Shown here: one piece after another, positions 2,509-34,497 of the stretch | Layout of the letters: each line of letters begins with the position of its first letter | Numbering within the stretch: position 1 is the stretch's first letter | Origin: Bacteroidota bacterium | GTDB taxonomy: Bacteria; Bacteroidota; Ignavibacteria; UBA10030; UBA8401 | Assembly (NCBI GenBank): GCA_023229405.1 | Contig: JALNZH010000002.1 | Location: 1 to 38,606 of the forward strand | Direction: 5' to 3' | Length of the DNA: 38,606 nt | Translations under genes and position numbers: made by a program | Notes under the pieces: model-generated | What the model was told of the DNA's origin: nothing | The model's input: only the letters and a program-made list of their open reading frames with translations | The model's database searches: none

Positions 2509-2822
2509 GTTCGGATGGATAAGATATAGAGACGATTCCACTGAAAGACACTATTGCTCAGAAACTGATTCAAAAACAAAAGCTAATTTTTCACCATTGT
2601 TATTCTCGTTTGCCTTGCGCACCTGTGGCGGGTACACCGGCAGGCAGGGATACTTTACCACTAGACTCCCGATAGAAACATTCGGGAGAGACAATGGAGT
2701 TTTTGAGATCAGTGCTCAGTTGTTATTTCGCCGCTTCGTCATACTTTTCATTAGATGTTGGGTGTTGTTTTTGGGATGAATCCGTTTTAGATTGTACTGT
2801 TCTTTATCACTCAGGGGGCTGT

Positions 2823-3380
2823 TTGAAAACGAAGGACAGAATACTCATCATTGATGATGATCAGATGTTTCTGGGGATGGTGCAGTCGATGCTGCACGAC
2901 GAAGGATACGAAATTGCTGCCAATACCAACGTGCGCGAAGGATTGGAGAGACTAGACCGGTTCGATCCCGACGTTTTGATTCTGGACTGGCAGATGCCGG
3001 GTATTACGGGAATTGAAGCGATCGACATGATCCGCAAACAACAGAAGTATGACAGTCTCTATATTATAATGCTCTCCGGCAAAATCATGACGGACAATAT
3101 CGTCACAGCGATTACAGCCGGCGCGGATGATTACGTCATCAAACCATTCTCTTCCGAGGAACTGATGGCAAGAGTTTTGAACGGTGTTCGGAGCCGGAGA
3201 CGTCGTTCGCTTGGCAACGAAAACAGGGAAGCCATCTTGAAAGGTCTGCAGAAGATCGAAACTCTTTCTCAGCAACTTGCCAACACAAGTGCAAAGGATA
3301 AACGCTCTTCCTCTTGGAATACCGATATCAGGGTGATTGTGTCGGATCTGAAGGATCTGTTGAAATCGTATTCCTCATGA
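2823..3380 (+). CDS. Stand-alone CheY-like receiver protein with a helical C-terminal tail
   Basis: ORF 2694..3380 has no ATG before the receiver. An in-frame TTG at 2823 follows cagggggc. Motifs ILIIDDD, DVLILDWQMPGITG, MLSGK and ADDYVIKPF. No output domain recognised. Confidence 0.8.
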   Translation: MKTKDRILIIDDDQMFLGMVQSMLHDEGYEIAANTNVREGLERLDRFDPDVLILDWQMPGITGIEAIDMIRKQQKYDSLYIIMLSGKIMTDNIVTAITAGADDYVIKPFSSEELMARVLNGVRSRRRRSLGNENREAILKGLQKIETLSQQLANTSAKDKRSSSWNTDIRVIVSDLKDLLKSYSS

Positions 3381-3439
3381 AGAGAACATCTGCATTTGTG
3401 TCGCACAGTTGAATCACGCTCATACAAAAATCCATCAGT

Positions 3440-7750: not shown

Positions 7751-7853
7751 GGAATTTGCGAACTGCGGTATCGAACGCGGGATATTTGTTTAAAACAATA
7801 ATTCCTCAATTACCACGGTCGGCAATTGAGGAATTATGTTGTGCTCCCAATGG
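7751..7853 (+). repeat. Repeat family copy B (most complete), just downstream of CDS 6115..7710
   Basis: 5' part equals copy A. Contains a perfect 14-bp hairpin 7798-7811/7824-7837 with a 12-nt loop. 3' part is homologous to 32041..32104. Confidence 0.85.
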
Positions 7854-8128
7854 TCTGTACCGAAGGAATCCATTTGAAAACCGTCGGTATTTTAGCTGAC
7901 GAACCGGTATTACAATCACCTTTTTAAAACAACATAGTTCAACTTAGCTGGTAGATCAGTTTTAACAAATTCTTTGTTCTACAAAATACAATTGGGTACA
8001 TTGCATGAAGGAAGTAGAAACATTGAGTCACGAACATTGTTCTCAAATTCCGATACTCCCGGACTCTTGATGCGCTATTGTGTTCAGAAGTTTTATTACT
8101 CACAAGCACATGTTATTTCGAATCCATT

Positions 8129-8815
8129 ATGATGCTACGAAACAAGCCACGGCAAAATAAAATCACTGTACCAAAAATCCGGATATTACTTATAGAAGAC
8201 AACCGTATTTTACGGGATGGCATCACTGCCATGATCAATGGACACAGCGATATTATCGTTGTAGCTGTTTCAAACGGAAGAGATCACACTTTATTAAAAG
8301 CACGTACAGTAAAACCGGATCTTGTGCTAATGGATTTTGGATTGGCGAGTCAAAACAGTTTGAGTGTTGTTCAGACCTTGAAAAATGATTTTCCTGCCAT
8401 CAAAATAATTGGAATGGGTCTCGTTCCCACCCAAATGGATATTATGGAATTTGTGCAAGCAGGGGCTGATGGTTTTATCCTAAAAAATGTAGCCGTGGGA
8501 GAAGTGATCAAAACAATTCGCGCGGTAGTTGCCGGAGAAAAATCACTTCCTCCTCCCATGACCGAATCGCTCTTTTCTCAAGTGGTGGAGCATGCCCTTT
8601 TGAAAGGGAAAAGAAACATTTCGAGTGCCATTAGAATGACCCTACGCGAAAAGGAAATTATTGCTTTAATTGTTGAGGGAATGAGTAACAAACATATTGC
8701 CGAAACACTTCATATTGCTACGTTTACCGTAAAAAGCCATGTGCATAATATATTGGAAAAATTAGCTTTGCACAGCCGGCTTCAGATTGCTATGCACGCC
8801 CGCGACGAAAAATAA
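8129..8815 (+). CDS. NarL/FixJ (LuxR-HTH) family response regulator, orphan, paralogue 1
   Basis: ORF 8078..8815 (TTG); first ATGs at 8129/8132. Receiver motifs IRILLIEDN, DLVLMD, GADGFILKN. HTH LREKEIIALIVEGMSNKHIAETLHIATFTVKSHVHNILEKL. Collinear with 13025..13750. Confidence 0.85.
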   Translation: MMLRNKPRQNKITVPKIRILLIEDNRILRDGITAMINGHSDIIVVAVSNGRDHTLLKARTVKPDLVLMDFGLASQNSLSVVQTLKNDFPAIKIIGMGLVPTQMDIMEFVQAGADGFILKNVAVGEVIKTIRAVVAGEKSLPPPMTESLFSQVVEHALLKGKRNISSAIRMTLREKEIIALIVEGMSNKHIAETLHIATFTVKSHVHNILEKLALHSRLQIAMHARDEK

Positions 8816-8978
8816 TTATACTTTCGTTTCGACCGATCCTCTCCGAAGCACTTCTCTGGAACATCCGCAGGATTTGACAGTATCACGTACAGCTGATATA
8901 CAACAGTTTTCTGAATTTGCGAGGTGAGCAATTACAAAATTGTTGTTTGTCCGACATTTATCGAAGCAAAGTATACTT

Positions 8979-9060
8979 AAGGATTAATTCCTTTTCCATC
9001 CTTTTGGACGATTACAATTGAATGCAATCATCGATATACTCATTCATAATTCAGAAGAGA
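8979..9060 (+). promoter_or_regulatory. Conserved bipartite upstream element, copy 1 (box1 8999-9015, N12, box2 9028-9046)
   Basis: aaggattaattccttttccaTCCTTTTGGACGATTAC-aattgaatgcaa-TCATCGATATACTCATTCAtaattcagaagag. Aligns with copies at 13982, 15114 and 15463. Lies about 118 nt before ATG 9178. Confidence 0.7.
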
Positions 9061-9177
9061 AAGTTACTCCTTCATCGAGTAATAGAAACAGTGCTGATGG
9101 GTGCTGAATTAATTTGCACGATCTTTCATTGATTGTGTGTTGTAAGAATATTCATGTAAAATATAAAAGGAACGGTA

Positions 9178-9981
9178 ATGAAAAAGAAAAATAGTATTGC
9201 GTCTTGCATCTTCATCGGTCTTTTAATTTTAGCAGTTGGATGCAAAAATTCAGATGATCCAGTAACTTCCAATTCGAAAGCTTCAGCAGTCAATCTTTCA
9301 GTTGGGTTCTCAAAAGTAGGTTCAAGCAATTCACTTTTAAAAACAACTTCTGCTGATTCATTGCGCATAGACAGTGTTGTGGCTGTATTCCAAAGAATAA
9401 AATTTGAAGCACACATAGAAACTGCAACCATCGATTCCATGGGACATGATACAATGGAAACAGAGAGTGAATCAAACTATACATTTAAAGGACCGTTTAT
9501 TGTTCATATTCGAGATTCAAGTGCCATAAATTTTGCAAACCAATTGCTTCCTACCGGTGTATATACCGGGATTAAATTCAAAATTCACGCTATGCAGAAC
9601 GGTGAAAGATACGAAGACAGCGACGATTACAATCACCGAAAAGTTGCTGCAAATAATGATTCAATGATGGGTTATAGTATCGCTGTATGGGGCGCAATAC
9701 AAAAAGATGGAGTATGGGTACCGTTTGCTTTCAAATCAAACATTGAAGTTGAATATAAACTGAAAGGCAATTTTACAATTGCGGTCTCAACAACATCTAT
9801 CAATATGGCCCTTCGTTTTAATACGGCGGATTGGTTTAAAGACATTCAAACGGGTTTATTGTTGGATCCGACCATCTCCACATCAGAAAACAGAGCTACT
9901 ATCAACAACTCGATTAAAAAATCTTTTGAAAAAGGTTATGGCGGCAGAGATTTCAATGACGATGGACATCCGGATGATTAA
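9178..9981 (+). CDS. Lipoprotein of unknown function (possibly DUF4382-like beta-sandwich)
   Basis: Lipobox MKKKNSIASCIFIGLLILAVGCKN. Segment FKGPFIVHIRDSSAINFANQLLPTGVYTGIKFKIH resembles DUF4382-type lipoproteins; the family call is tentative. Confidence 0.6.
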   Translation: MKKKNSIASCIFIGLLILAVGCKNSDDPVTSNSKASAVNLSVGFSKVGSSNSLLKTTSADSLRIDSVVAVFQRIKFEAHIETATIDSMGHDTMETESESNYTFKGPFIVHIRDSSAINFANQLLPTGVYTGIKFKIHAMQNGERYEDSDDYNHRKVAANNDSMMGYSIAVWGAIQKDGVWVPFAFKSNIEVEYKLKGNFTIAVSTTSINMALRFNTADWFKDIQTGLLLDPTISTSENRATINNSIKKSFEKGYGGRDFNDDGHPDD

Positions 9982-10010
9982 CTCACGTTACGAAAAGAAT
10001 TAAAATCAAT

Positions 10011-10079
10011 CGTCATTCCCGCACGTTCTTAGCGGGAATCTATATAATGGATGCCCGACTAAAGCATTCGGGCATGACG
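10011..10079. repeat. REP-like nested palindromes
   Basis: attcccgc/gcgggaat (10015-22/10032-39) and atgcccga/tcgggcat (10051-58/10068-75), enclosed by cgtcat..atgacg. Confidence 0.8.
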
Positions 10080-10154
10080 ACTTTACTTTATTAGGCGGTT
10101 ATTTTCTCTGCATAACATTAGTGATTAAGATAAAATAGAACCACAATGCGGCAA

Positions 10155-10189
10155 AAATCCTACAAACATACGTTGTAGGATTTTTTTTT
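10155..10189 (+). terminator. Rho-independent terminator (A-run upstream, so possibly bidirectional)
   Basis: 11-bp stem aaatcctacaa/ttgtaggattt, 7-nt loop, then a T9 run. Confidence 0.7.
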
Positions 10190-10230
10190 GACTTCGAGAT
10201 ATGATGCAATTGAGATATTCCAATAAATCA

Positions 10231-10339
10231 CTCACGTTACGCAAAACAAGAAAAACGGTCATGGTGAGCAAGGCGCAGGTTAAGATAGTTACGTCATTCT
10301 TCTGCCGAAGGCATCCCTATCGGGAGACGCATCCTTTCC
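10231..10339. repeat. Right arm of the 109-nt inverted repeat
   Basis: Reverse complement of 1..109 (105/109). Its first ~20 nt (ctcacgttacg.aaaa) also recur at 9982..10000. Confidence 0.85.
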
Positions 10340-10623
10340 CGCAGGGATTCCTTCGGAACAAACAGCAAAGGATTTGCTCAGGATGACCGCTGTTTCTGTG
10401 CCGTGTCGAACCATTTTTCCTTTTTGCGTAACATCAGTAAATCATCCCTTTGGACTATTGTTTTACCGATGTATCTATTACTTATTAGTGTATTATAGAT
10501 AAGCACCACACATTCTTCTGAAAAGCTGCAACTTGCTATAAATAGATGGACATCTGGTGCATGCAATTTTTACCAATAGAATTTGTTATTCATTCAAAAA
10601 AACAAATCCGGAGATAAAAGATC

Positions 10624-12372
10624 ATGAAGAAAAAAGAGGCACCATCTCATCGTAATGTCCTTCCAAAATCTCCTACCAGTATTCAGGGATTGGATGAAAT
10701 TACGGGCGGAGGATTACCAAAAGGGAGACCGACGCTTATTTGTGGCGGCGCGGGTTGTGGAAAGACTCTTTTTGCTATGGAGTTTCTTGTGCGTGGAGCA
10801 ACGCTGTACAATGAGCCGGGTGTCTTTATATCGTTCGAGGAAACAGAGAAAGAACTTACGGCAAATGTTGCTTCGTTAGGATTCGATTTAGACAAACTTG
10901 TAAAGCGGAAAAAAATTTGGTTGGAGCACATTCATATTGAACGAAATGAACTCGAACAAAGCGGTGAATACGATCTGGAGGGATTGTTTATTAGGATACA
11001 TTCTGCAATTGAAAAAATTGATGCAAAACGTGTTGTTCTTGATACGATGGAAATACTTTTTTCAGAATTGCCAAATCCACAGATACTGCGCAAAGAGCTA
11101 CATCGGTTGTTCCAATGGCTGAAAAAAAGAGGAGTAACAACAATTGTTACTGCAGAGCGAGGCGAAGGTGCCTTAACTCGTGAAGGATTGGAAGAGTATG
11201 TTTCTGATTGCGTCATCCTGCTTGATCATCGCGTGATCGATCAATCATCTATTCGTCGACTGCGGATTGTAAAATATCGCGGTTCATCGCATGGTACAAA
11301 CGAGTATCCTTTCCTTATTGATGAAGATGGTTTTTCTGTTCTTCCTGTCACTTCTCTGGGACTGAATCACATCTCATCCCCAGAGAGAATTTCTACCGGT
11401 CTTCCGCGTCTCGACACCATGCTCTCCGGTAAAGGATATTTCCGAGGCAGTACGGTGCTTGTTTCGGGCACTGCCGGTACTGGCAAGACGAGCATTGCCG
11501 CACAATTTGTTGAAGCGGCATGCAAGCGAGGAGAACGCGTTCTCTTTTTCACATTCGAAGAGTCTTCAAATCAGATTGTTCGCAATATGCGCTCCATTGG
11601 AATAGATTTAGAACCATGGGTAAACAAAGGATTGCTTCAGTTTCATGCAACACGCCCCACACTCTATGGTTTAGAAACTCATCTGTCAACGAGCATCAAA
11701 TTGGTTAATAAATTTAGACCAAGCATCGTGATACTCGATCCTATTAATGCATTCGTGCTGGGAGAAAACCAAACGGAAGTCAATATCATGTTGGTGCGCC
11801 TTGTAGATTTTTTAAAGATGAGACGGGTCACTGCGTTTTTCACAAGTCTGACATCCGGCAACGATACTATGGAATCGACCGACGTGTACATCTCATCCTT
11901 GATTGATACATGGCTGCTTGTTCGTGATTTAGAAATTGGTGGCGAACGGAACAGAGGTTTGTATGTGCTTAAATCGCGCGGCATGGCGCACTCCAATCAG
12001 ATCCGCGAGTTTAGACTGACAAATAACGGAATTGAGCTGCTTGACGTGTACGTTGGCTCAGAAGGTGTTTTGACCGGTTCGGCGCGATTATCACAAGAAA
12101 CAAAAGATGAGGCTGAACAATTATTGCGTCAGCAGGAGATCGGATCAAAACAATTTAAATTGGAACGTAAACGCGATGCATTAGCAGCTCAGATTGTTGT
12201 ATTGCGATCTGAATTTGAGGCTGAAGCATCAGATGCACTTAAAGTGATCGGGATTGAAAAAGCAATAAATGAACGCTTCACGCTGGACAAGATAAAAATG
12301 AGTAAGAGCCGAAGAGGTGATGCATCGACAAAAATATCGTACGCTTCAAACGGAAACGGAAGAAAAAAATAA
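10624..12372 (+). CDS. kaiC: KaiC-family double-domain autokinase/ATPase with an extended C-terminal tail
   Basis: Two RecA-like halves with Walker A motifs (CGGAGCGKT; GTAGTGKTS). GLDEITGGGLPKGRPTLI and ..TDVYISSLIDTWLLVRDLEIGGERNRGLYVLKSRGMAHSNQIREF are collinear with cyanobacterial KaiC. 582 aa. Confidence 0.9.
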   Translation: MKKKEAPSHRNVLPKSPTSIQGLDEITGGGLPKGRPTLICGGAGCGKTLFAMEFLVRGATLYNEPGVFISFEETEKELTANVASLGFDLDKLVKRKKIWLEHIHIERNELEQSGEYDLEGLFIRIHSAIEKIDAKRVVLDTMEILFSELPNPQILRKELHRLFQWLKKRGVTTIVTAERGEGALTREGLEEYVSDCVILLDHRVIDQSSIRRLRIVKYRGSSHGTNEYPFLIDEDGFSVLPVTSLGLNHISSPERISTGLPRLDTMLSGKGYFRGSTVLVSGTAGTGKTSIAAQFVEAACKRGERVLFFTFEESSNQIVRNMRSIGIDLEPWVNKGLLQFHATRPTLYGLETHLSTSIKLVNKFRPSIVILDPINAFVLGENQTEVNIMLVRLVDFLKMRRVTAFFTSLTSGNDTMESTDVYISSLIDTWLLVRDLEIGGERNRGLYVLKSRGMAHSNQIREFRLTNNGIELLDVYVGSEGVLTGSARLSQETKDEAEQLLRQQEIGSKQFKLERKRDALAAQIVVLRSEFEAEASDALKVIGIEKAINERFTLDKIKMSKSRRGDASTKISYASNGNGRKK

Positions 12373-12387
12373 TTAAAGGAATGTAGT

Positions 12388-12765
12388 GTGAATATTGAAC
12401 ATGAAAAATTGAAAACGCGCCGCTCTAAGGCTCTACTTGTTAAGGAAAATGAGCCATCTGTCAAAGCGGGAGATTCCAGATGGGATTTGAATCTGTATGT
12501 TGTAGGCGAGAGTCCGAAAGCCGTCACTGCATTTAACAATCTTAAAATAATTTGTGAGGAACAATTAAAAGACAAGTATCAAATAAACGTGATCGATCTT
12601 TTAAAGAATCCACAGAGTGCGCACGATAACCAAATTGTTGCTGTTCCGACATTGGTGCGTAAACTACCGTTGCCGGAGAGGAACATTATTGGAGATCTTT
12701 CAAATAGAGAGCGCGTATTGGTTGGATTAGGTCTTAAAGAACTTGGTGAACTTACGGTTGCGTGA
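12388..12765 (+). CDS. kaiB: KaiB (thioredoxin-like fold) with an N-terminal extension
   Basis: [65 protein letters not shown] is collinear with KaiB. GTG start lies 15 nt after the kaiC stop and follows aaagga. Confidence 0.88.
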
Positions 12766-12793
12766 AAATCTGCGACAGTGGATGAAAAGTAAA

Positions 12794-12826
12794 TTCTGAT
12801 AATATTCAATAGGAATATTATCAGAA
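12794..12826 (+). terminator. Perfect 14-bp hairpin after kaiB; possible terminator without a U-tract
   Basis: ttctgataatattc-aatag-gaatattatcagaa. Not followed by a T-run, so the function is uncertain. Confidence 0.3.
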
Positions 12827-13024
12827 GGAGTCTCAAAAATGAATTGTATTGTTATTCTCTACGAGTCGTAGACCGAACAAAGTCCCAAAGGGACAAGTGA
12901 GGAATCTCGTTTGAATAATTAAAGACAAAACCGAGATTTCTCTCTTGCTAAAGCGGGATCGAAATGATAGTGACGAGGTATTTTTAAGACGGCTTTTAGT
13001 AGCACCTTATAGCGTTTTGCACAC

Positions 13025-13750
13025 ATGTTCCAAAGGAAAGCAATCGGTATTAACTTCATTCCGTATGCTACCACGAAACAAATTGGACAAAAAATAGTGT
13101 CTATGCCTAAAATTCGAATACTCCTTGTAGAAGATAACCGCATTTTGCGTGATGGCATTACTGCGATGATCAACGGTCAGAAAGATGTCATGGTTGCGGC
13201 TGTTTGCGACGGCAGGGATGACACCATATCGAAAGCACGCACATCGAAACCGCAAGTGGTGTTGATTGATCTCGGTTTGGAGAGTCAGAACAGTTTGGAC
13301 GTAGTGCAGTTGTTGAAGAAGGAGTTTCCGGATATCAAAATTATTGGGATGGGTCTTAATCCATCACAATCGGATATTATGGAATTCGTGCAAGCAGGGG
13401 CGGAGGGTTTTATACTTAAAAACGCAACGCTTGAAGAGGTGATCAATACAATTCGAGCAGTAGCCTGCGGAGAAAAAATACTCCCTTCCTTAATGACCGG
13501 ATCACTCTTTTTTCAAGTGGCAGAACATGCACTCCTGAAAGGAAAAAGAAACCTTAATAGCGCCGTCCGTATGACAGAGCGTGAAAAAGAAGTGATTGCA
13601 TTGATTGTTGAGGGAATGAGTAACAAGCAAATTGGTGACAATCTCAGTATCGCAACGTTCACCGTTAAAAGTCATGTACATAATATTCTGGAAAAGTTAG
13701 CTTTACAAAGCCGTCTTCAAATTGCAATGCACGTCAGTAATGGAAAATAA
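13025..13750 (+). CDS. NarL/FixJ (LuxR-HTH) family response regulator, orphan, paralogue 2
   Basis: ATG 13025; alternative starts GTG 13094 and ATG 13103 (MPKIRILLVEDN). Residues KIVSMPKIR align with KITVPKIR of paralogue 1, favouring an upstream start. Same receiver and HTH motifs as 8129..8815. Confidence 0.85.
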   Translation: MFQRKAIGINFIPYATTKQIGQKIVSMPKIRILLVEDNRILRDGITAMINGQKDVMVAAVCDGRDDTISKARTSKPQVVLIDLGLESQNSLDVVQLLKKEFPDIKIIGMGLNPSQSDIMEFVQAGAEGFILKNATLEEVINTIRAVACGEKILPSLMTGSLFFQVAEHALLKGKRNLNSAVRMTEREKEVIALIVEGMSNKQIGDNLSIATFTVKSHVHNILEKLALQSRLQIAMHVSNGK

Positions 13751-13808
13751 TTTTAGTTCCAATCTCACCAATCCACTCAGAAGTAGTACATCATATTCCT
13801 GAAAAGAG

Positions 13809-13847
13809 AAACACAATCGAGAAGTTTATAGCCTCATTGTGTTTTTT
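13809..13847 (+). terminator. Probable rho-independent terminator of the regulator gene
   Basis: 9-bp stem aaacacaat/attgtgttt with an 18-nt loop, followed by a T-run. Confidence 0.5.
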
Positions 13848-13981
13848 CTGTTGTATACTGGGAATTCCGTCGAACTTCGATCACTCACTCTCTGGCTATC
13901 AAAGCAGCAATCGCCGTCAACCCGATGGATGGCATAGAGTAACTCTCAACTACACCATTACTTGGTATTATTTACAACACT

Positions 13982-14063
13982 TAAGAGTTAGCTCTTTTAT
14001 TGTCCTTTTGGGCGATTACTTCTGGAGGCAGTCATGAGTATACTCATTCACGATTCAGGAGAG
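13982..14063 (+). promoter_or_regulatory. Conserved bipartite upstream element, copy 2 (box1 14003-14019, N12, box2 14032-14050)
   Basis: taagagttagctcttttattgTCCTTTTGGGCGATTAC-ttctggaggcag-TCATGAGTATACTCATTCAcgattcaggagagg. Lies between terminator 13809 and ATG 14169. Confidence 0.7.
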
Positions 14064-14168
14064 GATTTCATTTCTTCATTGATCAAAGAGAACTTCTGCT
14101 GATTCTGCAACGTACGCCTTATTAAAGGGATTACATTTTTAAGTGTTATGATTCATTTAAGGAGATTT

Positions 14169-15026
14169 ATGAAAAACGCAAATATTCAAATCCACACACA
14201 ATCAGCGATACGACCGGCTATCATTATGTCTATTTCGCTTGCAATGTTTCTTTTCGCAGCGTGCGAATCGAATTCACCATCCACCCAACAAGACATCAGT
14301 GGTCCGTCTTCAACAGCAACAACAATTAACAAAAAAGTTGCTTCTTTTGACGCTGTATCGAACCTTGCTGTTCTAGCGCCGGTAAATCTTGGTTTAGCCG
14401 ACGGATTTGCAATTCTGTCGTACGCTGGAATCACCAATACCGGTATCACAAGTATTACTGGAAATCTTGGAGCGAGTCCTATAACCGGTGCTTCACTGAC
14501 TGGATTTGAGACAGTAGCTTTAGTTGGAACAACGTATACCGTTGATGCTAGCGGTCCTGTAGGTTACGTAACAGATGCTACGATGTTAACTCAGGCAATG
14601 CTTGATGTAACAGTTGCATATAATGATGCCGCAGGACGAACGGAAAATCCAATTGGTATAGAAGGAAATCTTGGCGGACAGACACTTCTTCCGGGACTTT
14701 ATAAATCTACCGGTGCGCTTGAAATCTCATCCGGCGATCTTACGCTCGATGCTCAAGGTGATGTGAATGCTGTTTGGATTTTTCAAGTAGCGTCCAGTTT
14801 CAATATGACATCAGGTCGCCAAGTGTTCTTAACCGGCGGTGCGAAAGCTTCCAACATTTTTTGGCAGGTCGGTAGTTCTGCAACATTTGGAACAACTGCA
14901 GTAATGAAGGGAACCATTTTGGCGTATGCAACAGTAACACTTGCTACAGGTGCATCATTGGAAGGCAGAGCATTAGCTCGAACCGCCAATGTTACATTAG
15001 ATGCTAATACCATTGTGAAGCCGTAA
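14169..15026 (+). CDS. Lipoprotein with a DUF3494 / type-1 ice-binding-protein-like beta-helix domain (subtype A)
   Basis: ORF 14148..15026; ATG 14169 follows aaggag. Lipobox LFAAC. Family motifs [88 protein letters not shown]. Confidence 0.85.
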   Translation: MKNANIQIHTQSAIRPAIIMSISLAMFLFAACESNSPSTQQDISGPSSTATTINKKVASFDAVSNLAVLAPVNLGLADGFAILSYAGITNTGITSITGNLGASPITGASLTGFETVALVGTTYTVDASGPVGYVTDATMLTQAMLDVTVAYNDAAGRTENPIGIEGNLGGQTLLPGLYKSTGALEISSGDLTLDAQGDVNAVWIFQVASSFNMTSGRQVFLTGGAKASNIFWQVGSSATFGTTAVMKGTILAYATVTLATGASLEGRALARTANVTLDANTIVKP

Positions 15027-15066
15027 ACTAATTGGATTGATTTCTCAATTATTGGCTGAACATCGG

Positions 15067-15097
15067 AACCCCGCTCTCACAAGGGCGGGGTTTTTTA
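15067..15097 (+). terminator. Rho-independent terminator
   Basis: GC-rich stem ccccgc(t)c/gggcgggg followed by T6. Confidence 0.75.
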
Positions 15098-15113
15098 TTG
15101 ATCGCTAACTACA

Positions 15114-15190
15114 AAGGATTAACTCTTTTTCCATCCCTTCGGGCGATTACACTCGAACACATTCATCTGTATACTCATTCACAGTGTAAT
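15114..15190 (+). promoter_or_regulatory. Conserved bipartite upstream element, copy 3 (box1 15134-15150, N12, box2 15163-15181)
   Basis: aaggattaactctttttccaTCCCTTCGGGCGATTAC-actcgaacacat-TCATCTGTATACTCATTCAcag. Ends about 50 nt before sORF ATG 15239. Confidence 0.7.
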
Positions 15191-15238
15191 TGAATTTATA
15201 TAATAAAAACGATACACAAAAATTAAAAGGAGCGAATC

Positions 15239-15394
15239 ATGGAAATTATTATTGGTCTTATCGCTTATGCCGTAGTTTTATATTTCCTTGTATCCTTTGG
15301 ACGATTTTCCAAAGAATGTGATAATTCTATGGGGGAATACTTTGGTAAACGGAATGTAAGGAAAAGTAAGAAAGCAATCGCACAACTTTCATAG
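15239..15394 (+). CDS. Small membrane protein, 51 aa (below the ORF-track cutoff)
   Basis: Strong RBS aaggag 6 nt before the ATG. MEIIIGLIAYAVVLYFLVSFGRFSKECDNSMGEYFGKRNVRKSKKAIAQLS has one TM helix and a basic tail. Sits directly behind element copy 3. Confidence 0.5.
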   Translation: MEIIIGLIAYAVVLYFLVSFGRFSKECDNSMGEYFGKRNVRKSKKAIAQLS

Positions 15395-15462
15395 AGATGT
15401 ACTAGAATTGATTGTTTGGTTGTTTCGATTTTCTGTTCCAGTGAGCGCTACAAATCATACTA

Positions 15463-15544
15463 AAGGATTAACTCTTTTTCCGTCCTTTTGGGCGATTACT
15501 TTTCAACATAGTCATCGGTATACTCTTCCACAATTCAGGGGAGA
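15463..15544 (+). promoter_or_regulatory. Conserved bipartite upstream element, copy 4 (box1 15483-15499, N12, box2 15512-15530)
   Basis: aaggattaactctttttccgTCCTTTTGGGCGATTAC-ttttcaacatag-TCATCGGTATACTCTTCCAcaattcaggggagatg. About 190 nt before ATG 15735. Confidence 0.7.
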
Positions 15545-15734
15545 TGTACTCTCTTAGTACACCGACGGATATTTTCACTGAAAAGAAGCCAAATGACAAA
15601 TTCAAATAATGAATACGAACAACGAGAACTTGACATCAAGGAAGAGTTTCGAAAAAGAATCAACTAAAAAAGTAAGTATGAAATCGTCTTCGTGACACAA
15701 CCCGTAATTAATTAATAAATACAGAAAGAATGTT

Positions 15735-16574
15735 ATGAAAAACCTATCCACAAATTCAACACCTATCGTAGTAAGCCGATGGATGCAATTCGTCGGTATC
15801 TCACGAACAGTGGGATTAACAGTAATATTACCGGCATTTCTTTTTATTGCTGGCTGCAAAAAAGATGATGCAATTGCTTCACCTCCATCCTCAATAACCA
15901 TTCCACTTCAAACTACCGTACAGGCGGTAGTTAATCTTCGTTCCGATGCAGGTTTTGCAATTCTTGGAGGCTCATTGGTTTCCAATGTTCCAACATCCGC
16001 CATTACAGGGGATATTGGATTGAGTCCGGCAGCACGCTCATTCATCACCGGTTTTGGTTTAACAGAGGTAACGGGGACAATTTATGCCGCCGACGATATT
16101 TCTCCTGCAGGTGTGTCTGCGATGTTAACAGCGGCAAAGGGCGATTTAACCACAGCATATAATGATGCTGCAGGACGTACATCAACAGATATAGTGCTCC
16201 TTGCCGGAAATCTTGGCGGACTGACACTGACGCCAGGTCTCTATAAGTCGAGCGGTTCGCTTGAAATTTCATCAGGCGATCTTACGTTCGATGCCAAAGG
16301 AAATGCACATGCTGTTTTTATCATTCAGATTGCATCCACACTAAACACAACATCGGGTCGAAAGATTATTTTAAGCGGCGGTGCAAAAGCATCGAACATT
16401 TTTTGGCAGGTTGGTACTTCAGCAACTCTTGGAACAACCTCTGTATTCAAGGGAACCATCATGGCTGATCAATCGATCTCGCTGAATACCGGTGCAATAG
16501 TTGAAGGAAGATTGTTAGCGCGCATTGCTGCAGTAACGTTAGCCGGCAATACTGTTGTAAAACCGACACCATAA
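15735..16574 (+). CDS. Lipoprotein with a DUF3494 / ice-binding-like domain (chimeric subtype B-A-B)
   Basis: Lipobox FLFIAGC. Motifs [110 protein letters not shown]. Confidence 0.85.
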
Positions 16575-16611
16575 AATAGCTGAACAAAGCGATAATTTAA
16601 TCACTGAACAT

Positions 16612-16643
16612 TGAAATCCCGCTTTCCGGAGCGGGAGATTTCA
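16612..16643. repeat. REP-like hairpin of the aatcccgc family
   Basis: tgaaatcccgc/gcggg(ag)atttca. An A-run rather than a T-run follows. Confidence 0.6.
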
Positions 16644-16716
16644 AAAAATAAATTTCGCTCAGTTTTACTAACCATCTGTCTGAAGTTAGTGGTTACATCA
16701 AAAGAAAGAAAAGATC

Positions 16717-16845
16717 ATGAGAACACTCGACGTTATCGCTCTGGTCCTGTTCGTCATGTGGATGTTAGGTGTCATTCACATTCTTTTAGGAATTGCAATT
16801 GTAGCATTCTTCTTCAGTGTAACTCGCAGACGAAAGGCTTTTTAA
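16717..16845 (+). CDS. Small hydrophobic membrane protein, 42 aa (possibly lmo0937/DUF5670-like)
   Basis: MRTLDVIALVLFVMWMLGVIHILLGIAIVAFFFSVTRRRKAF has two hydrophobic stretches and an RRRK tail. Only a purine-rich weak RBS. The overlapping 86-aa track ORF (16611..16871) runs through a REP hairpin. Confidence 0.4.
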   Translation: MRTLDVIALVLFVMWMLGVIHILLGIAIVAFFFSVTRRRKAF

Positions 16846-16877
16846 CCAAAGGAACGGAGCCTAAGACGTAATCTTTT

Positions 16878-17117
16878 ATGGACGCAATAATTCATGACGA
16901 AGAAATTCAAAATGCAGATCAAAAAACATTGAATGACAAAATCTTTTTCTCGAACAATATTAGAATGAAAATCACAATGAAAACTGCAAAATTATTTCTC
17001 TATTACGGTTACACAATGGCAACGATATGGATGTTGTATTCTCATTTTCTGAAAGAGCAACGACAGTGCAAAATGCCGGCTCACATAGAAGAAGATGAAT
17101 TCATAAACTGGCAGTAG
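16878..17117 (+). CDS. Hypothetical small protein with one hydrophobic segment
   Basis: 79-aa ORF with a weak RBS and the hydrophobic stretch AKLFLYYGYTMATIWMLYSHF. No recognisable family. Confidence 0.25.
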   Translation: MDAIIHDEEIQNADQKTLNDKIFFSNNIRMKITMKTAKLFLYYGYTMATIWMLYSHFLKEQRQCKMPAHIEEDEFINWQ

Positions 17118-17244
17118 AAAAATTTGAACAAATAATTGAACAATAATTTTAGCTCGTAGTAGAACAGGTAGACCGTGCTCTATAAGAGCGGGACGATTCG
17201 AACAAAAAACATTTAGTCATTATTATTTACACCATGGAGAAGTT

Positions 17245-18330
17245 ATGAATACCGATACAAAACACACAACAAATAATTTAGCACGATTGACACGCTTCTT
17301 TGGAGTGATCCTGCCAGTTGCGTTGATCTTCTCAGTCACAGCAATGTCTCAAACATTGACTGCGGTAAATTTAGGATCATCCGCCAATTACGTTATTCTG
17401 GCTGGTTCATTAGTTTCAAACATTCCGGCTTCTGCGGTTACAGGGAATATCGGTTTGAGTCCCGCAGCGGGCAGCAGCATAACCGGATTTGGTTTAACTG
17501 AAGTTACCGGGACCATCTACACGGTTGATGCTACCGGTCCTGTCGGTTCGACAATGGCACCGACAATACTGACGGCGGCAAAGGGTGATTTAACCATTGG
17601 GTACAACGATGCCGCAGGACGCACACCAATACCAACGGGTACATATTTAAATCCGGGATCAGGAAATATTGGCGGATTAACACTTGTTCCGGGTCTGTAT
17701 AAATTTACAAGCGATGCTTCAATAACGGGATCTGATGTTACTCTCACAGGCACCGCAACAGATGTCTGGATATTCCAGATTGCTGCTGGTCTGAACGTCG
17801 GCACTGGCATTAAAGTTATTCTTGCCGGTGGTGCAAGAGCAGCAAACATTTTTTGGCAGGTCGGTAGCTCGGCGACCCTGGGTACAACCTCTGTATTCAA
17901 AGGAACGATCATGGCTGGTCAATCAATCTCGTTGGGTACTGGAGCATCTTTGGAAGGTAGGGCGTTAGCAAGTAATGCCGCAGTTACATTAGAATCTAGT
18001 GTTGTTACCAGACCGTCGACAACGACCGCTGTAGCAAATGGAATCGTAACGCCACAACAATATGAACTCTTCCAAAATTATCCGAACCCATTCAACCCAT
18101 CCACACAGATTCATTATAATCTTGAGAAGGCTGTTCAGGTTTCTCTCAAGGTCTACAATCTTCTTGGTGATGAAGTTGCAACACTGGTGAAGGGTCCTCA
18201 AGAAGCAGGTAGTTATGCTGTGCCGTTCAATAGCAATATGGGAACACGTAATCTTTCAAGCGGTGTCTACTTTTACCGTTTGGAAGCCGGGCCATTTCTT
18301 TCAACAAAAAAATTTACACTTGTAAAGTAG
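17245..18330 (+). CDS. T9SS-sorted DUF3494 / ice-binding-like protein (subtype B)
   Basis: RBS ggaga and a signal peptide. Motifs [90 protein letters not shown]9SS tail LFQNYPNPFNPSTQIHYNL..GVYFYRLEAG..KKFTLVK. Confidence 0.88.
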   Translation: MNTDTKHTTNNLARLTRFFGVILPVALIFSVTAMSQTLTAVNLGSSANYVILAGSLVSNIPASAVTGNIGLSPAAGSSITGFGLTEVTGTIYTVDATGPVGSTMAPTILTAAKGDLTIGYNDAAGRTPIPTGTYLNPGSGNIGGLTLVPGLYKFTSDASITGSDVTLTGTATDVWIFQIAAGLNVGTGIKVILAGGARAANIFWQVGSSATLGTTSVFKGTIMAGQSISLGTGASLEGRALASNAAVTLESSVVTRPSTTTAVANGIVTPQQYELFQNYPNPFNPSTQIHYNLEKAVQVSLKVYNLLGDEVATLVKGPQEAGSYAVPFNSNMGTRNLSSGVYFYRLEAGPFLSTKKFTLVK

Positions 18331-18417
18331 TTCTTATTTATAAATCCACTTTCAAGAGTGGGGACAATTTTCCTAAACAATATCTTATTCATTTTCAATA
18401 ACTAAAGAGAAAGTCTT

Positions 18418-20763
18418 ATGAACATTAACACAACAAATAAATTACGCCGATGGTCTCGTTTTGTCGGAGCAATGGTGTCAGCAGCTTTGATGATGTCTGT
18501 CACCGCCAAGTCTCAATCATTGATGCCAGTAAATCTGGGGTCGACCTCCAATTTTTCAATTTTGGCTGGTTCATTAATCTCAAACATTCCAACGTCTGCT
18601 GTTATTGGTGATATCGGTTTAAGCCCTGCCGCTGGCAGTGGTGTAATTGGATTTGGACAAACTGAAGTGACAGGAATAATATATACGGTCGATGCTACTG
18701 GTCCTGTCGGTTCAGTAATTGATGCTACGAAGCTAACTACAGCGCAGGGTGATTTAACGATTGCATACAACGATGCTGCAGGGCGTACGCCAATTCCGAC
18801 GGGTACATTTTTGAATCCGGGATCGGGAAATATTGGAGGATTAACACTTGCTCCAGGATTGTATAAATTCACAAGTGACGCATCGATTTCAGGTTCTGAT
18901 GTTACGCTCACAGGCAGCGCAACAGATGTCTGGATATTCCAGATTGCAGCTGGTCTTAATGTAGGCACTGGTATTAAAGTTATTCTTGCCGGTGGTGCAA
19001 AAGCATCGAACATTTTTTGGCAGGTTGGTACATCAGTCACACTGGGAACAACTTCGGTCTTCAAGGGAACCATTTTGGCAGATCAATCTATCTCGCTAAA
19101 TACCGGTGCAACAGTTGAAGGAAGATTATTAGCCCGCATTGCTGCGGTTACATTGGCCTCTAATGCTGTTACCAATCCGACCATCATCACTTTGCAAGCT
19201 CCATTGTTAACATCACCAGCTGACGAAGCAACACATCAGTCAACATCTGTTGAGTTGAAATGGTTTGCTTCAACTGGAGACAGCGTGTATCATTTACAAA
19301 TTGATACGAACAACGTTTTTGGTACAACGGTGTATAACGATTCAACTCTTACAGGAACCCTGCATAAAACAGCAGGTTTAATGAATGGAACAAAATATTT
19401 CTGGCGCGTAAGTGTAAAAGATAGTGCGAAGTATGGTGGCGGAACAAGCGCGTATTCGACCATTCGAAGTTTTACAACATTGAATCTCATATCTATTCCG
19501 CAACCACCAGTGTTAGAATTGCCGGCTGACCTGGCAACGAATCAATCAACAACAATTGAATTGACGTGGTTTGCTGCCGTTGGAGACAGCGTGTATCATT
19601 TACAAATTGATACAAGCAAATTTTTTAGTTCAACGGTGTATAACGACTCAACTCTCAAAGGTAGCTTGCATAAAATTACAGGCTTAAAGAATGCAACAAA
19701 ATATTACTGGCGTGTAAGTGTAAAAGACAGTGCAACGAATGGTTTCGGAACGAGTGCTTATTCAACAGTACGAAGTTTTACAACATGGAACGTTACACCA
19801 ACAACACCTCTTTTGCCGGTCACTCTTGGTATGACTGATCGATTTGCGATTTTATCGTATGCAGGAATAACCAATACAGGTCCTACAAGTATTATCGGAG
19901 ATGTTGGAGTGAGTCCTCTTGCTGCTTCGTATATGACCGGATTTGGTACACCCAATATCGTCGGAACGATCTATGGAGTTGACGCAACAGGTCCTGAAGG
20001 CTCGGTAGTTTTTCCTTCGATGTTAACACAGGCCATGGGTGATTTAACGACAGCATTTAACGATGCGGCAGGACGAACAGTAGATCCGATCGGTGTGTCC
20101 GGAAATCTTGGTGGACTTACTCTCTATTCTGGTTTGTATAAATCCACTGGGTCACTTGAAATATCATCAGGCGATCTTACGCTCGATGCTCAAGATGACA
20201 CAGCTGCTGTTTGGGTTTTTCAAATAGCTTCCAGTTTCGATATGACATCAGGTCGCCAAGTTTTCCTTACGGGCGGTGCAAAAGCTTCCAATATTTTTTG
20301 GCAAATGGGAAGTGCGGCAACGTTTGGAACGACGACTATAATGAAGGGAACCATTATGGCGTATACAACAATTACGTTTGCTACAGGCGCATCGTTGGAA
20401 GGCAGAGCATTAGCGCGAACGGCTGGTATTACATTGCAAAGCAATACCATCGGCAAAGTTGCGGGACCGACTTCTGTTCGGTCAGAAAATGTACCCCAAG
20501 AATTTACACTTTTACAGAATTACCCGAATCCGTTCAATCCAACAACAAATATTGAATTCACCGTTCCATTCAATGGACGAGCAACATTGAAAGTATTCAA
20601 TGCGATCGGACAGGAAGTTGCGACATTGTTCAACGGTGAAGCGGAAGCAGGAAAATACAATACAGTGCAATTCAACGCTTCAGGATTGGCAACTGGATTG
20701 TATTTTTCACGATTGGAGTTTGGCGGTGTAGTGCAGTTGAAAAAAATGATGCTGGTAAAATAA
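18418..20763 (+). CDS. T9SS-sorted protein: DUF3494(B) - 2x FN3-like repeats - DUF3494(A) - sorting tail
   Basis: Domain 1 about 18520-19176. Two 102-aa-period repeats at 19201-19479 and 19513-19785 (..W(F)A..GDSVYHLQIDT..Y(F/Y)WRVSVKD..). Domain 2 about 19813-20457. Tail LLQNYPNPFNPTTNIEF..GLYFSRLEFG..KKMMLVK. Confidence 0.88.
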   Translation: MNINTTNKLRRWSRFVGAMVSAALMMSVTAKSQSLMPVNLGSTSNFSILAGSLISNIPTSAVIGDIGLSPAAGSGVIGFGQTEVTGIIYTVDATGPVGSVIDATKLTTAQGDLTIAYNDAAGRTPIPTGTFLNPGSGNIGGLTLAPGLYKFTSDASISGSDVTLTGSATDVWIFQIAAGLNVGTGIKVILAGGAKASNIFWQVGTSVTLGTTSVFKGTILADQSISLNTGATVEGRLLARIAAVTLASNAVTNPTIITLQAPLLTSPADEATHQSTSVELKWFASTGDSVYHLQIDTNNVFGTTVYNDSTLTGTLHKTAGLMNGTKYFWRVSVKDSAKYGGGTSAYSTIRSFTTLNLISIPQPPVLELPADLATNQSTTIELTWFAAVGDSVYHLQIDTSKFFSSTVYNDSTLKGSLHKITGLKNATKYYWRVSVKDSATNGFGTSAYSTVRSFTTWNVTPTTPLLPVTLGMTDRFAILSYAGITNTGPTSIIGDVGVSPLAASYMTGFGTPNIVGTIYGVDATGPEGSVVFPSMLTQAMGDLTTAFNDAAGRTVDPIGVSGNLGGLTLYSGLYKSTGSLEISSGDLTLDAQDDTAAVWVFQIASSFDMTSGRQVFLTGGAKASNIFWQMGSAATFGTTTIMKGTIMAYTTITFATGASLEGRALARTAGITLQSNTIGKVAGPTSVRSENVPQEFTLLQNYPNPFNPTTNIEFTVPFNGRATLKVFNAIGQEVATLFNGEAEAGKYNTVQFNASGLATGLYFSRLEFGGVVQLKKMMLVK

Positions 20764-20789
20764 AACACTATTAGGTAATAAAATAAATG

Positions 20790-20825
20790 AAGCGTTTCGG
20801 TTTTTTTACCGGAACGCTTTTTTTA
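20790..20825 (+). terminator. Rho-independent terminator
   Basis: 11-bp stem aagcgtttcgg/ccggaacgctt (one G-U pair), 8-nt loop, then T7+. Confidence 0.75.
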
Positions 20826-20870
20826 TCAATGGGTTTTACTTTGCGGACACAAAATATTCTAGGAGAAATC

Positions 20871-21626
20871 ATGAATCATATTAATTGCTCGTTTCGATTG
20901 TCTGCTGTACTTATTGCATTACTAACATTGACGATCCTGCCGGCGAGGTCACAAGTGAATATGAAACTTGGGGGCGGTATCGGTATAGTCAGTCCGACTT
21001 CAGATTTCAGCGGTTCTACCATTGACTACTATAACGGTTCAAACTATGGACTCGTCAGTGGTCTTACCATTCATGGAAAGACGAAGATCGGATTATCAGG
21101 ATTGAATATTGTCGGTGAAATTGATTATGCGTCATTACAAAATACCGGAAATTCTGGACCAGGACGGGGATTGGTGAATATATCACAAAATATCATATCG
21201 CTGAAAGTCGGACCTGAGTTTCATCTCACCATTCCCATAATACCAATTACTCCATACATCGGTGCAAACATAGCAATGAATAGATTCAGCGGAGAGACAA
21301 CGTTTCGCGGAGTATCGAAAGTTCCGAGTGCAACATATAGTGTAACAGACGCAACACGATTTGGTGTTGGATTTTCTGCCGGTTCGGAAGTGAGTATTGG
21401 TCATTTGTTATCGTTCGATTTTAATTTCTCATACAACTTCATGAATGTCGCCGGTAAGGAATGGAATAACGTTAATCCGGAAACAAACCAACGCATCGAT
21501 TCCTATCTTTCGTTGAATGATGGTATCGATCCTCAGTACACCACAGGAGATGAAAATCATTTTATTGTCAGCACGCGTAATATTAATTCAGTTCTGGTTA
21601 CGGTAAGCATCTTGTTCGGTGTATAG
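20871..21626 (+). CDS. Outer-membrane beta-barrel protein (porin-like, unknown function)
   Basis: ORF 20787..21626, but 20787-20825 is the terminator. ATG 20871 follows aggag. Signal LIALLTLTILPARSQ. Alternating-hydrophobicity strands rich in G/S/N/Y/F. Confidence 0.6.
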   Translation: MNHINCSFRLSAVLIALLTLTILPARSQVNMKLGGGIGIVSPTSDFSGSTIDYYNGSNYGLVSGLTIHGKTKIGLSGLNIVGEIDYASLQNTGNSGPGRGLVNISQNIISLKVGPEFHLTIPIIPITPYIGANIAMNRFSGETTFRGVSKVPSATYSVTDATRFGVGFSAGSEVSIGHLLSFDFNFSYNFMNVAGKEWNNVNPETNQRIDSYLSLNDGIDPQYTTGDENHFIVSTRNINSVLVTVSILFGV

Positions 21627-21707
21627 TATGGTTAATGGGTAGAAGGCTGAGGAAATACAGCAACAAATTCACGAATTGTTACACCATAAACATAAGGAAT
21701 TTATACC

Positions 21708-22202
21708 ATGAACCATTATCGTTTTGCAATTATTGCCTGTTGTGTGTTTCTCGCATTTCAGGAATCCAAAGCTCAAGTGCACCGCTTTGGACTTGGTGTG
21801 ATCATCGGTGAACCTGCGGGAATCAGCGCAAAGTTGTGGACATCAAACCACACCGCATTTAATTTCGGTGCTGGTTGGTCGGTAGGAGGAGATCGTATGG
21901 GGAGGTATGATTACTATTATAATGGAACAAACCGAGTTCACGTACACATGGACTACTTGTGGCATTCGTTTGATGTCATCCGTTCATCCGAACTATTTCC
22001 GCTATTCTATGGCATTGGTTGTCGTATAAACAATGGTGCCGGGTATGACGCTTCGGTTGCAGTTCGAGGTGTGTTCGGCTTTGCATGGCTGCCGCATAAA
22101 GTGCCAATAGATATATTTATAGAGCTCGTTCCGATGCTCCAACTTTCACCTGCAAGCAGTTTTGGTATTGATGCCGGAGTTGGCGCACGATATTTTTTTT
22201 GA
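21708..22202 (+). CDS. Small outer-membrane beta-barrel protein
   Basis: Signal MNHYRFAIIACCVFLAFQESKAQ. Short amphipathic strands. Ends GVGARYFF (C-terminal aromatic beta-signal). Confidence 0.6.
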   Translation: MNHYRFAIIACCVFLAFQESKAQVHRFGLGVIIGEPAGISAKLWTSNHTAFNFGAGWSVGGDRMGRYDYYYNGTNRVHVHMDYLWHSFDVIRSSELFPLFYGIGCRINNGAGYDASVAVRGVFGFAWLPHKVPIDIFIELVPMLQLSPASSFGIDAGVGARYFF

Positions 22203-24429: not shown

Positions 24430-24430
24430 G

Positions 24431-25843: not shown

Positions 25844-25930
25844 CCGAAAGGAAATGATGTAACCTTACAGAGCGGTTTACAATAGTATCAGAAGGGAACT
25901 CCCGATACCACAATACAAAAGAGGCGGAGA

Positions 25931-30713: not shown

Positions 30714-30998
30714 TACCTCCTAGTTCCTTGTATTTTTTTGATAGTATGAAATGAAAATTCATACAAGCGGTGGGTCCCATGAAAAGAAGCATCTCCATCG
30801 CAACATTCACGAATTTTTTCTTCCAGGCAGTGTCCTCACAATATTCATTCAATTTACCGGTTGATACGATCACATCTGGATCCATTATCGAAAAAAATTC
30901 TTTTCGCAAAAAAGGTCATGAGATAGTACAGAAGTTATCATTGCATCTTCGTCATTGACTACGGACATACCGATCTGAATTTTATTTTAACGTGGAAA

Positions 30999-33461: not shown

Positions 33462-33506
33462 ACTAACAAACTTGGTCGGTTAAAAAGACTTTTGGCAATA
33501 TGTTCG

Positions 33507-34493: not shown

Positions 34494-34497
34494 ACGT

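Follow-up and report, generated by a model that had tools for sequence, protein, structure and literature searches.

An orphan NarL/LuxR-type regulator family and its putative operator probably join KaiC2-type kaiCB genes with DUF3494 surface protein genes in Bacteroidota, Ignavibacteria and allied lineages

Homologues of KaiB and KaiC occur widely beyond the cyanobacteria, and for the Rhodobacter-type hourglass a transcriptional readout is not known. In these other organisms the Kai output factors are stated to be missing or unknown, and only KaiB2/KaiC2-like proteins are present in Bacteroidetes (Schmelling et al. 2017, PMC5520375). Here, a stretch of 38,606 nucleotides from a Bacteroidota bacterium (assembly GCA_023229405.1, contig JALNZH010000002.1; the whole stretch is called the window) was compared with the described Kai systems. 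It carries kaiC and kaiB between the genes of two response regulators of the NarL/LuxR type, RR1 and RR2, an array of genes for DUF3494 surface proteins and four copies of a cis element of about 85 bp. On balance, we regard this region as a regulatory unit that is conserved among Bacteroidota, Ignavibacteria and allied lineages, with an orphan regulator and the element at its core, kaiCB as a recurrent member and a probable feedback. The features at the centre of this reading are the following.

8129 to 8815, + strand: RR1, NarL/LuxR-type response regulator with receiver (REC) and GerE helix-turn-helix domains (Pfam)
8974 to 9056, + strand: element copy 1, preceding the gene U267; palindrome AAAGGAT-N13-ATCCTTT, GATTAC, then a TATACT box resembling a -10 sequence
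10442 to 10462, + strand: half-element TCATCCCTTTGGACTATTG, 181 nt upstream of kaiC
10624 to 12372, + strand: KaiC, KaiC2 / R. sphaeroides type (Pfam 355 bits, two KaiC domains)
12388 to 12765, + strand: KaiB; start codon uncertain, KaiB domain at aa 34-116
13103 to 13750, + strand: RR2, paralogue of RR1, with REC and GerE (Pfam)
13977 to 14060, + strand: element copy 2, preceding IBP1
14148 to 15026, + strand: IBP1, DUF3494 protein with lipoprotein-like signal
15109 to 15188, + strand: element copy 3, preceding a small open reading frame (sORF) for a 51-aa membrane protein
15457 to 15541, + strand: element copy 4, preceding IBP2
15735 to 16574, + strand: IBP2, lipoprotein-like DUF3494 protein, missing from the closest long relative (L003)
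17245 to 18330, + strand: IBP3, DUF3494 protein with C-terminal sorting domain of the type IX secretion system (T9SS)
18418 to 20763, + strand: IBP4, with two DUF3494 domains, two FN3-like repeats and a T9SS sorting domain

The Kai proteins of the window resemble the KaiBC hourglass of Rhodobacter sphaeroides (8DBA/8FWJ; Pitsawong et al. 2023, PMC10076222) in the KaiC fold and tail, the Ser-Ser site and the KaiB match. KaiC contains two KaiC/RecA-like ATPase domains (NCBIfam PRK09302, 729 against a cutoff of 408). Its Walker A motifs and catalytic Glu pairs, GAGCGKT/SFEETE and GTAGTGKT/TFEESS, were invariant in the KaiC alignment. The best solved relative was the R. sphaeroides protein 8DBA (E=5e-203), with 551 residues aligned up to residue 564 of 582. 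This alignment covers the C-terminal coiled-coil extension of about 60 aa and places the phosphosite ISSLIDT on GLSSLMD (S413/S414) of 8DBA. A Ser-Ser instead of a Ser-Thr pair and a C-terminal coiled-coil extension of about 50 aa are described as the marks of KaiC2 (PMC10076222). The kaiB gene begins 16 nt past kaiC, its product matched best with KaiB of R. sphaeroides, and a KaiA domain was detected in none of the open reading frames (ORFs) scanned across the 38.6-kb window. Judged by these sequence marks, KaiC is of the KaiA-independent KaiC2 or Rhodobacter hourglass type of ATPase and autokinase, as the original prediction had proposed, and hourglass behaviour is predicted. In contrast to the R. 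sphaeroides system, the kaiC clade found here carries the presumed cis element of the regulator upstream. Many outgroup KaiC2 loci differ in the gene past kaiB, which is a PAS-HisKA_3 kinase there and an atypical NarL-type regulator here.

RR1 and RR2 share 74% protein identity and are thus paralogues; the claim that two closely related regulators flank kaiC-kaiB was borne out. Both exceed the Pfam cutoffs for Response_reg and GerE, with the GerE/LuxR DNA-binding domain at the C-terminus (E=2e-17), and VraR and NarL were the best solved relatives. No NCBIfam equivalog cutoff was passed. With NarL, VraR and DesR the regulator shares the REC-GerE architecture as well as the acidic pair (E10-D11), the phospho-acceptor Asp (D56) and the Lys (K106), which were invariant in the regulator alignment. 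The recognition helix was invariant as well (16 sequences). In contrast to NarL, VraR and DesR, Gly84 is found at the conserved Thr/Ser position, aligned with T of VraR and S87 of NarL, and the active-site quintet is incomplete. Since a receiver without any one of the five active-site residues is defined as a pseudo-receiver (PMC12632262), the regulator belongs to this group by definition. A search with RR2 yielded 3587 matches at E<=1e-20. The top 120 clusters, 69-96% identical, bear only names of regulators from Bacteroidota metagenome-assembled genomes (MAGs).

A second difference from NarL, VraR and DesR is that most genomes have no adjacent HisKA_3 partner. The kinases of the window are of the HisKA type (PF00512), and no kinase of the HisKA_3 type, the NarL class, adjoins the regulators. 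Among more than 70 relatives, HisKA_3 kinases were found beside the regulator family only in three bridging loci (L019, L022, L024). Hence, the family is genuinely orphan in the NarL sense, as had been claimed for RR1 and RR2. The broader claim that no kinase is adjacent holds for the HisKA_3 type, but not for kinases in general, since two of the HisKA type follow on the same strand.

A response regulator genetically tied to kaiBC is also known from the cyanobacterial KaiC-SasA/CikA-RpaA pathway. Furthermore, the presumed operator upstream of kaiC is comparable to RpaA-driven kaiBC and suggests a transcription-feedback loop. The resemblance to the SasA-RpaA output is functional only. In contrast to RpaA, the regulator is of the NarL/LuxR and not of the OmpR type, and a SasA-like kinase with an N-terminal KaiB-like domain was not present among the scanned ORFs of the window. 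The targets also differ from those of the cyanobacterial output, as they are surface DUF3494 and stress-type genes, and the hosts are non-phototrophic uncultured lineages resembling Bacteroidota and Ignavibacteria. The pseudo-receiver-like receiver recalls the Kai-binding pseudo-receivers of CikA and KaiA; for CikA, binding to KaiB is described (review PMC12632262). The closest known case of a NarL-type receiver associated with Kai proteins is KaiA3 (Sll0485) of Synechocystis, in which such a receiver is fused to a KaiA-like C-terminal four-helix motif and which lies beside kaiB3 (PMC11372060). Here, too, a NarL-type receiver protein directly adjoins kaiB/kaiC and co-occurs with them across genomes. 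Its C-terminus is a GerE helix-turn-helix and not KaiA-like. Thus, it is not a KaiA3 and should act as a transcription factor.

The element was found with the pattern GGCGATTAC-N12-TCATNNNTATACTC, which matched four times in the window, always on the + strand (9007, 14011, 15142, 15491), and never in 100 shuffles. The full conserved block comprises about 85 nt per copy. Its core is AAAGGATTAAcTCcTTTTtCATCCtTTtGGgCgATTAC, followed after about 19 nt by TATACT. The order in the original prediction, with one copy after each regulator gene and then a secreted protein gene (U267 and IBP1), and two more copies before a membrane sORF and the second DUF3494 gene, was found as described. All four copies were recovered, and the half copy upstream of kaiC is present in addition. 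With a profile built from the four window copies and rebuilt from 56 copies, nhmmer detected 137 copies in the window and 88 loci, 131 of them on the strand of the regulator. Of 72 species loci, 47 have a copy that begins 19-315 nt (median 162) past the stop codon of the regulator gene. These post-regulator intervals make up 2.6% of the sequence, yet contain 43% of the element matches. The most evident candidate for a protein binding the element is the regulator encoded next to it, whose recognition helix is invariant, and the element is probably the operator of this regulator fused to an activator-dependent promoter. The half-sites of this presumed operator are about 20 bp apart, centre to centre. 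The NarL site is of the 7-2-7 type, a spacing unlike that found here.

The element keeps a single orientation at 50-200 nt before start codons and includes an inverted repeat. This would also fit a structured RNA, as a 5' leader or riboswitch-like, acting post-transcriptionally. However, among the 56 copies the 7-bp arms AAAGGAT and ATCCTTT were nearly invariant and the observed changes break the pairing without compensation. The alifold consensus energy was only -0.85, and no Rfam family matched at gathering or E-value thresholds. Together, these results point to a protein-binding DNA site and not to RNA. The -10-like hexamer TATACT in the 3' part of the block, 84-100% conserved per position, fits a promoter, and a promoter scan picked ATTACA-18-TATACT inside two copies. 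Without Rfam match and covariation the structured RNA was rejected, and we regard it as hardly credible. Sigma-54 and Bacteroidetes -33/-7 promoters were dropped by eye against the 56-copy alignment because spacing and bases did not fit.

The first ORF downstream of the element copies most often encoded a DUF3494 protein (35), followed by baeRF_family3 (12), KaiC (7), CsbD (7), the regulator itself (5) and U164-like proteins (4). Genes for DUF4398, OmpA-like proteins, a sigma factor and an outer-membrane barrel were found downstream as well. CsbD, OmpA-like, DUF4398 and baeRF3 proteins in this position point to a general envelope/stress regulon. In distant relatives the commonest first gene past the element, at about 100-300 nt, encodes a baeRF_family3 protein of about 240 aa (L067, L069, L074, L076, L077, L079-L082, L087, L088). 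This bacterial homologue of archaeo-eukaryotic release factors was unexpected in the presumed regulon.

One genome per species was scanned with the regulator alignment as query, and 79 loci were obtained. They originate from MAGs labelled Bacteroidota, Ignavibacteria, Melioribacteraceae, Fibrobacterota, Calditrichota and others. Three contexts were looked up individually. The gene order of the window was found in L003 (regulator 89% identical), whereas L004 (82%) showed the order KaiC-KaiB-regulator-small ORF-three DUF3494 genes-barrel-U164-like and L007 (76%) a regulator-DUF3494 array without KaiCB. At regulator identities of at least 60%, a DUF3494 gene lies within 2.5 kb downstream in 18 of the 22 loci with enough downstream sequence, and KaiC-KaiB immediately upstream in 10 of the 27 with enough upstream sequence. 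Six relatives at 50-59% identity have the order regulator, then KaiC, which mirrors RR1 and kaiC in the window. KaiC-KaiB directly adjoins the regulator in about 16 species, and regulator genes lie on both sides of kaiCB in six species. Clustering of the neighbouring ORFs revealed a second LuxR-type regulator in 33 loci, DUF3494 in 23 + 12, KaiC in 17, CsbD in 14, KaiB in 13 and baeRF3 in 11. KaiCB was found at only about one third of the regulator-DUF3494 loci, which makes it accessory and not a universal input.

The reverse search, a metagenome scan with the KaiC alignment, gave 80 loci. Among the 18 with KaiC identities of at least 73%, the regulator is adjacent in 8 and the element present in 12; most of the others are short contigs. 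None of the 62 loci with 58-69% identity had the regulator or the element. Parts of the unit are therefore found together from both sides, and the element is conserved at the DNA level. In the comparison proposed with the original prediction, many related genomes were found to contain kaiCB, members of the regulator family, the element and DUF3494 genes together, in spite of rearrangements, and the synteny of kaiCB, regulator and DUF3494 recurs outside the window. As a cluster, these genes are kept in dozens of uncultured species.

Inherited gene order, for example on a laterally spreading island, could produce such synteny with kaiCB and the regulator-DUF3494 genes uncoupled. The relatives all come from a single broad group of uncultured lineages, and L003, L010 and L011 are nearly identical in order, as this explanation would have it. 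However, the linkage holds down to about 50% regulator and 73% KaiC identity, in at least four architectures and with differing intervening genes, and kaiC has a shared cis element before it. With the linkage kept in four architectures and with two KaiC types, over this regulator divergence and together with the shared element, inherited order alone is very unlikely. A mobile island was also unsupported: GC content is flat across the block, no tRNA genes flank it and no integrase domain was found among the scanned ORFs.

The element would connect kaiC itself to the regulator. A search of the 400 nt before each kaiC gene revealed an element or half-element in 17 of the 29 clade loci (at least 73% identity), against 1 of 59 in the outgroup, and this single outgroup locus is itself linked to the regulator. 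In seven species the half-element core is placed at -169 to -188 relative to the start of kaiC; more distant relatives have the complete palindrome. The kaiC gene of the window has no full copy and only the half-site. Thus, kaiCB is at least a target of the regulon. With an element variant about 180 nt upstream of kaiC in most relatives, the regulator probably drives kaiCB together with the surface-protein genes. The half-element and the terminator-like hairpin before kaiC indicate that this membership is weaker in the present organism than in its relatives.

From the same finding it might be argued that kaiCB is mere cargo: a regulator with an unrelated signal would switch on kaiCB and the surface proteins, and KaiCB would act elsewhere, for example in stress resistance, with no feedback. 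The other members of the regulon, which are of the stress or envelope type (CsbD in 14 loci, OmpA-like, DUF4398, outer-membrane barrels), agree with this, as does the presence of KaiCB at only about a third of the loci. Less easily explained are the six species with kaiCB flanked by regulator genes and the two KaiC types, long and short with about 60% identity, that each occur beside the regulator family; this exceeds the expectation for simple cargo. In addition, one chain of genes has a dedicated kinase between KaiB and the regulators. Taken by itself, we consider a regulator without any return signal possible, with doubts.

This chain is found in the bridging loci and has the order KaiC-KaiB-PAS-HisKA_3 kinase-canonical LuxR regulator-this regulator family-element-DUF3494 (type-B). 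Its KaiC is shorter (about 490 aa, 60% identical). At least 24 outgroup KaiC loci have a PAS-HisKA_3-like kinase directly past kaiB. L019, L022 and L024 bridge the usual KaiC2 architecture and that of the window, and they are the best evidence for Kai signalling towards NarL-type regulators. In two outgroup loci with 59-64% KaiC identity the order was KaiC-KaiB-KaiB-PAS-HisKA_3 kinase-regulator or receiver, then DUF3494 (L117, 1-9606; L142, 8958-13972). The link of Kai and DUF3494 therefore extends beyond the studied regulator family.

These loci also bear on a strict timer with KaiCB at the top, in which the state of KaiC would reach RR1 and RR2 by a distant kinase or by direct binding and gate the DUF3494 array. 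The regulator takes the slot past kaiB that the kinase holds in the outgroup, the type-B loci show the full chain, and both the pseudo-receivers of CikA and KaiA as cyanobacterial Kai partners and the NarL-type receiver of KaiA3 beside kaiB3 would be precedents. On the other hand, no kinase of the NarL-partner class adjoins in the window or in the more than 70 relatives to carry the signal, most family members occur without adjacent KaiCB, and the position of the element before kaiC speaks at least as strongly for control in the other direction. A strict timer is therefore only tentatively considered.

The conserved regulatory unit, which we prefer, would work as follows. The core would be the orphan, atypical NarL/LuxR-type regulator, here RR1 and RR2, with the element of about 85 bp. 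The regulator would bind the AAAGGAT-N13-ATCCTTT palindrome and activate the TATACT promoter before surface and stress genes, and in most relatives also before kaiCB. Terminator-like hairpins after IBP1 and U267 make the four copies appear to head separate transcription units, which in the window would be U267, IBP1, the 51-aa sORF and IBP2. Transcription of the IBP2 unit may continue into IBP3, IBP4 and both barrel genes. The co-regulated KaiCB probably acts back on the regulator, as the cyanobacterial example of RpaA and kaiBC suggests. A functional interaction of KaiCB and the regulator is thus what we infer, and only in this sense do we speak of signalling from KaiC to the regulator; the wiring from regulator to kaiCB is seen in the data at least as clearly. 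That KaiB-KaiC directly reads the pseudo-receiver and so controls the element without a kinase, with the regulator driving kaiCB to close the loop, is conceivable by analogy, and we rate it as unlikely. If true, a Kai timer outside cyanobacteria would for the first time have a defined pathway of transcriptional output and feedback, which would control surface DUF3494 proteins. Gating by daily light or freeze-thaw cycles is pure speculation.

Several results weigh against the regulatory unit with feedback. The regulator is assigned to the element by their shared location and shared conservation. Two thirds of the regulator-DUF3494 loci have no KaiCB within 10 kb, and for the kaiCB genes a role as pure cargo is about as likely as the feedback. 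In the window, the half-element of kaiC is weak (E=0.036 at window level), and a terminator-like hairpin separates kaiC from U267. No separate element copy serves IBP3, IBP4 or the barrel genes, and their inclusion needs read-through across a conserved leader of 670 nt. Finally, all relatives are MAGs or metagenome contigs, and their taxon labels are unreliable.

The presumed targets in the window include five DUF3494 domains (PF11999, Pfam Ice_binding) in four genes, with E=1e-59 to 1e-121. Solved relatives are the ice-binding proteins (IBPs) EfcIBP (6EIO, E=2e-55) and FfIBP (4NU2), with which the window proteins share the DUF3494 domain and the secretion as lipoprotein-like proteins or T9SS cargo. 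IBP1 reached 216 bits and stayed below the 400-bit cutoff of the NCBIfam ice-binding equivalog IBP_CFB. The proteins are called ice-binding-like, and their ice binding is putative. Tandem DUF3494 arrays like that of the window were reported in polar genomes (PMC9957290). An Arctic MAG survey of IBP neighbourhoods names LytTR-type regulators, not LuxR regulators or Kai genes. The leader before IBP3 contains sORFs for a 42-aa membrane protein (16717-16845) and a 46-aa product (16977-17117). In L003, where IBP2 is missing, element copy 4 directly abuts this leader (L003 12512-13007). The barrel genes closing the array in the window are OMP1 and U164. ORFs resembling U164 recur in these clusters and are preceded by the element in four other loci.

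All named genes between 8129 and 22202 were confirmed on the + strand by the ORF listing and Pfam, in agreement with the gene run on a single strand that had been claimed. The other features of this block and its surroundings are as follows.

7798 to 7837: hairpin with a 17/18-bp stem, terminator-like on the - strand; left edge of the co-directional block, past the upstream T9SS-cargo gene
9178 to 9981, + strand: U267, lipoprotein-like secreted protein, first gene past element copy 1
10153 to 10185, + strand: terminator-like hairpin with T-run in the U267-kaiC gap
15065 to 15094, + strand: strong intrinsic-terminator-like hairpin 3' of IBP1
15239 to 15394, + strand: 51-aa membrane sORF, kept in L003 and L011
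16682 to 17244, + strand: conserved leader/intergenic region of 560 nt before IBP3, 75% identical to L003, with two conserved sORFs
20787 to 21626, + strand: OMP1, outer-membrane beta-barrel (OMP_b-brl, Pfam)
21708 to 22202, + strand: U164, barrel-like outer-membrane ORF of 164 aa with aromatic last residue
22282 to 30366, + strand: continuation on the same strand with a PAS-HisKA kinase, a REC-REC-PAS protein, a hybrid kinase and a 551-aa ORF (U551)

The two barrel genes follow the array as claimed, but the end of the block at 22202 is arbitrary since genes on the same strand run on to 30366. According to Pfam, 22282-24429 encodes the PAS-HisKA kinase and 25931-28714 the hybrid REC-PAS-HisKA kinase. 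In L003 the U164-like gene is directly followed by the U551-like gene (window 22282-28714 against L003 17476-19620). The three signalling genes are missing at this position, which indicates an insertion or deletion there. The PAS-HisKA kinase contains two tandem copies, about 95% identical, of a module of coiled coil and PAS_4 (window 22282-25843). A third close copy is found in the REC-REC-PAS gene, where a Cys-rich tail LIPICANCKKIRDDKGFW...HGVCPECAKKLY comes next. Apparently, domains were recently duplicated or shuffled between these neighbouring signalling genes. A role of the PAS-HisKA kinase as light sensor was rejected, as its first PAS domain has no LOV signature. It was also rejected as a conserved partner of the unit; its likeness to kinases close to the regulator in L067, L074, L076, L082 and L024 is limited to the N-terminal PAS.

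No Pfam or NCBIfam match was found for U267, and related ORFs occur in six loci. A single-sequence AlphaFold model was unusable (predicted local distance difference test, pLDDT, of 32). Several hairpins were detected in the space between U267 and kaiC (10010-10190), with a terminator-like stem at the end. A comparison of this space with the Bacteroides small RNA BTnc005 of Rfam was sub-threshold (23.5 bits against 174.8, E=0.056). It may encode a small RNA or merely be a terminator region. The 337-nt gap between kaiB and RR2 contains a hairpin with a perfect 14-bp stem (12794-12826), terminator-like on the - strand only.

Upstream of the block, on the same strand, a stand-alone receiver protein and a SulP-STAS-cNMP-binding transporter are encoded (2694-5671), for which no link to the module was seen. 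Past the block (30339-38118) the strand flips. This part encodes a RelB antitoxin (31531-31788, -), a LTXXQ periplasmic protein (33786-34493, -), an extracytoplasmic function (ECF) sigma factor (34917-35453, -) and a TonB-dependent receptor (35653-38118, +).

In full-text literature searches no paper naming KaiC together with DUF3494, ice-binding or Ignavibacteria was found. The parts are all of known kinds and the wiring is new. The locus and its relatives provide concrete, cloneable parts, namely a regulator family, a DNA element and target genes including kaiCB. With these it becomes directly testable what a non-cyanobacterial Kai system controls and what controls such a system. Furthermore, the regulator is the first candidate for a dedicated regulator of DUF3494 genes, in lineages from peat, groundwater and sediment metagenomes. 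This bears on the role of DUF3494 proteins in these bacteria, which may be true ice binding or a broader surface and stress function.

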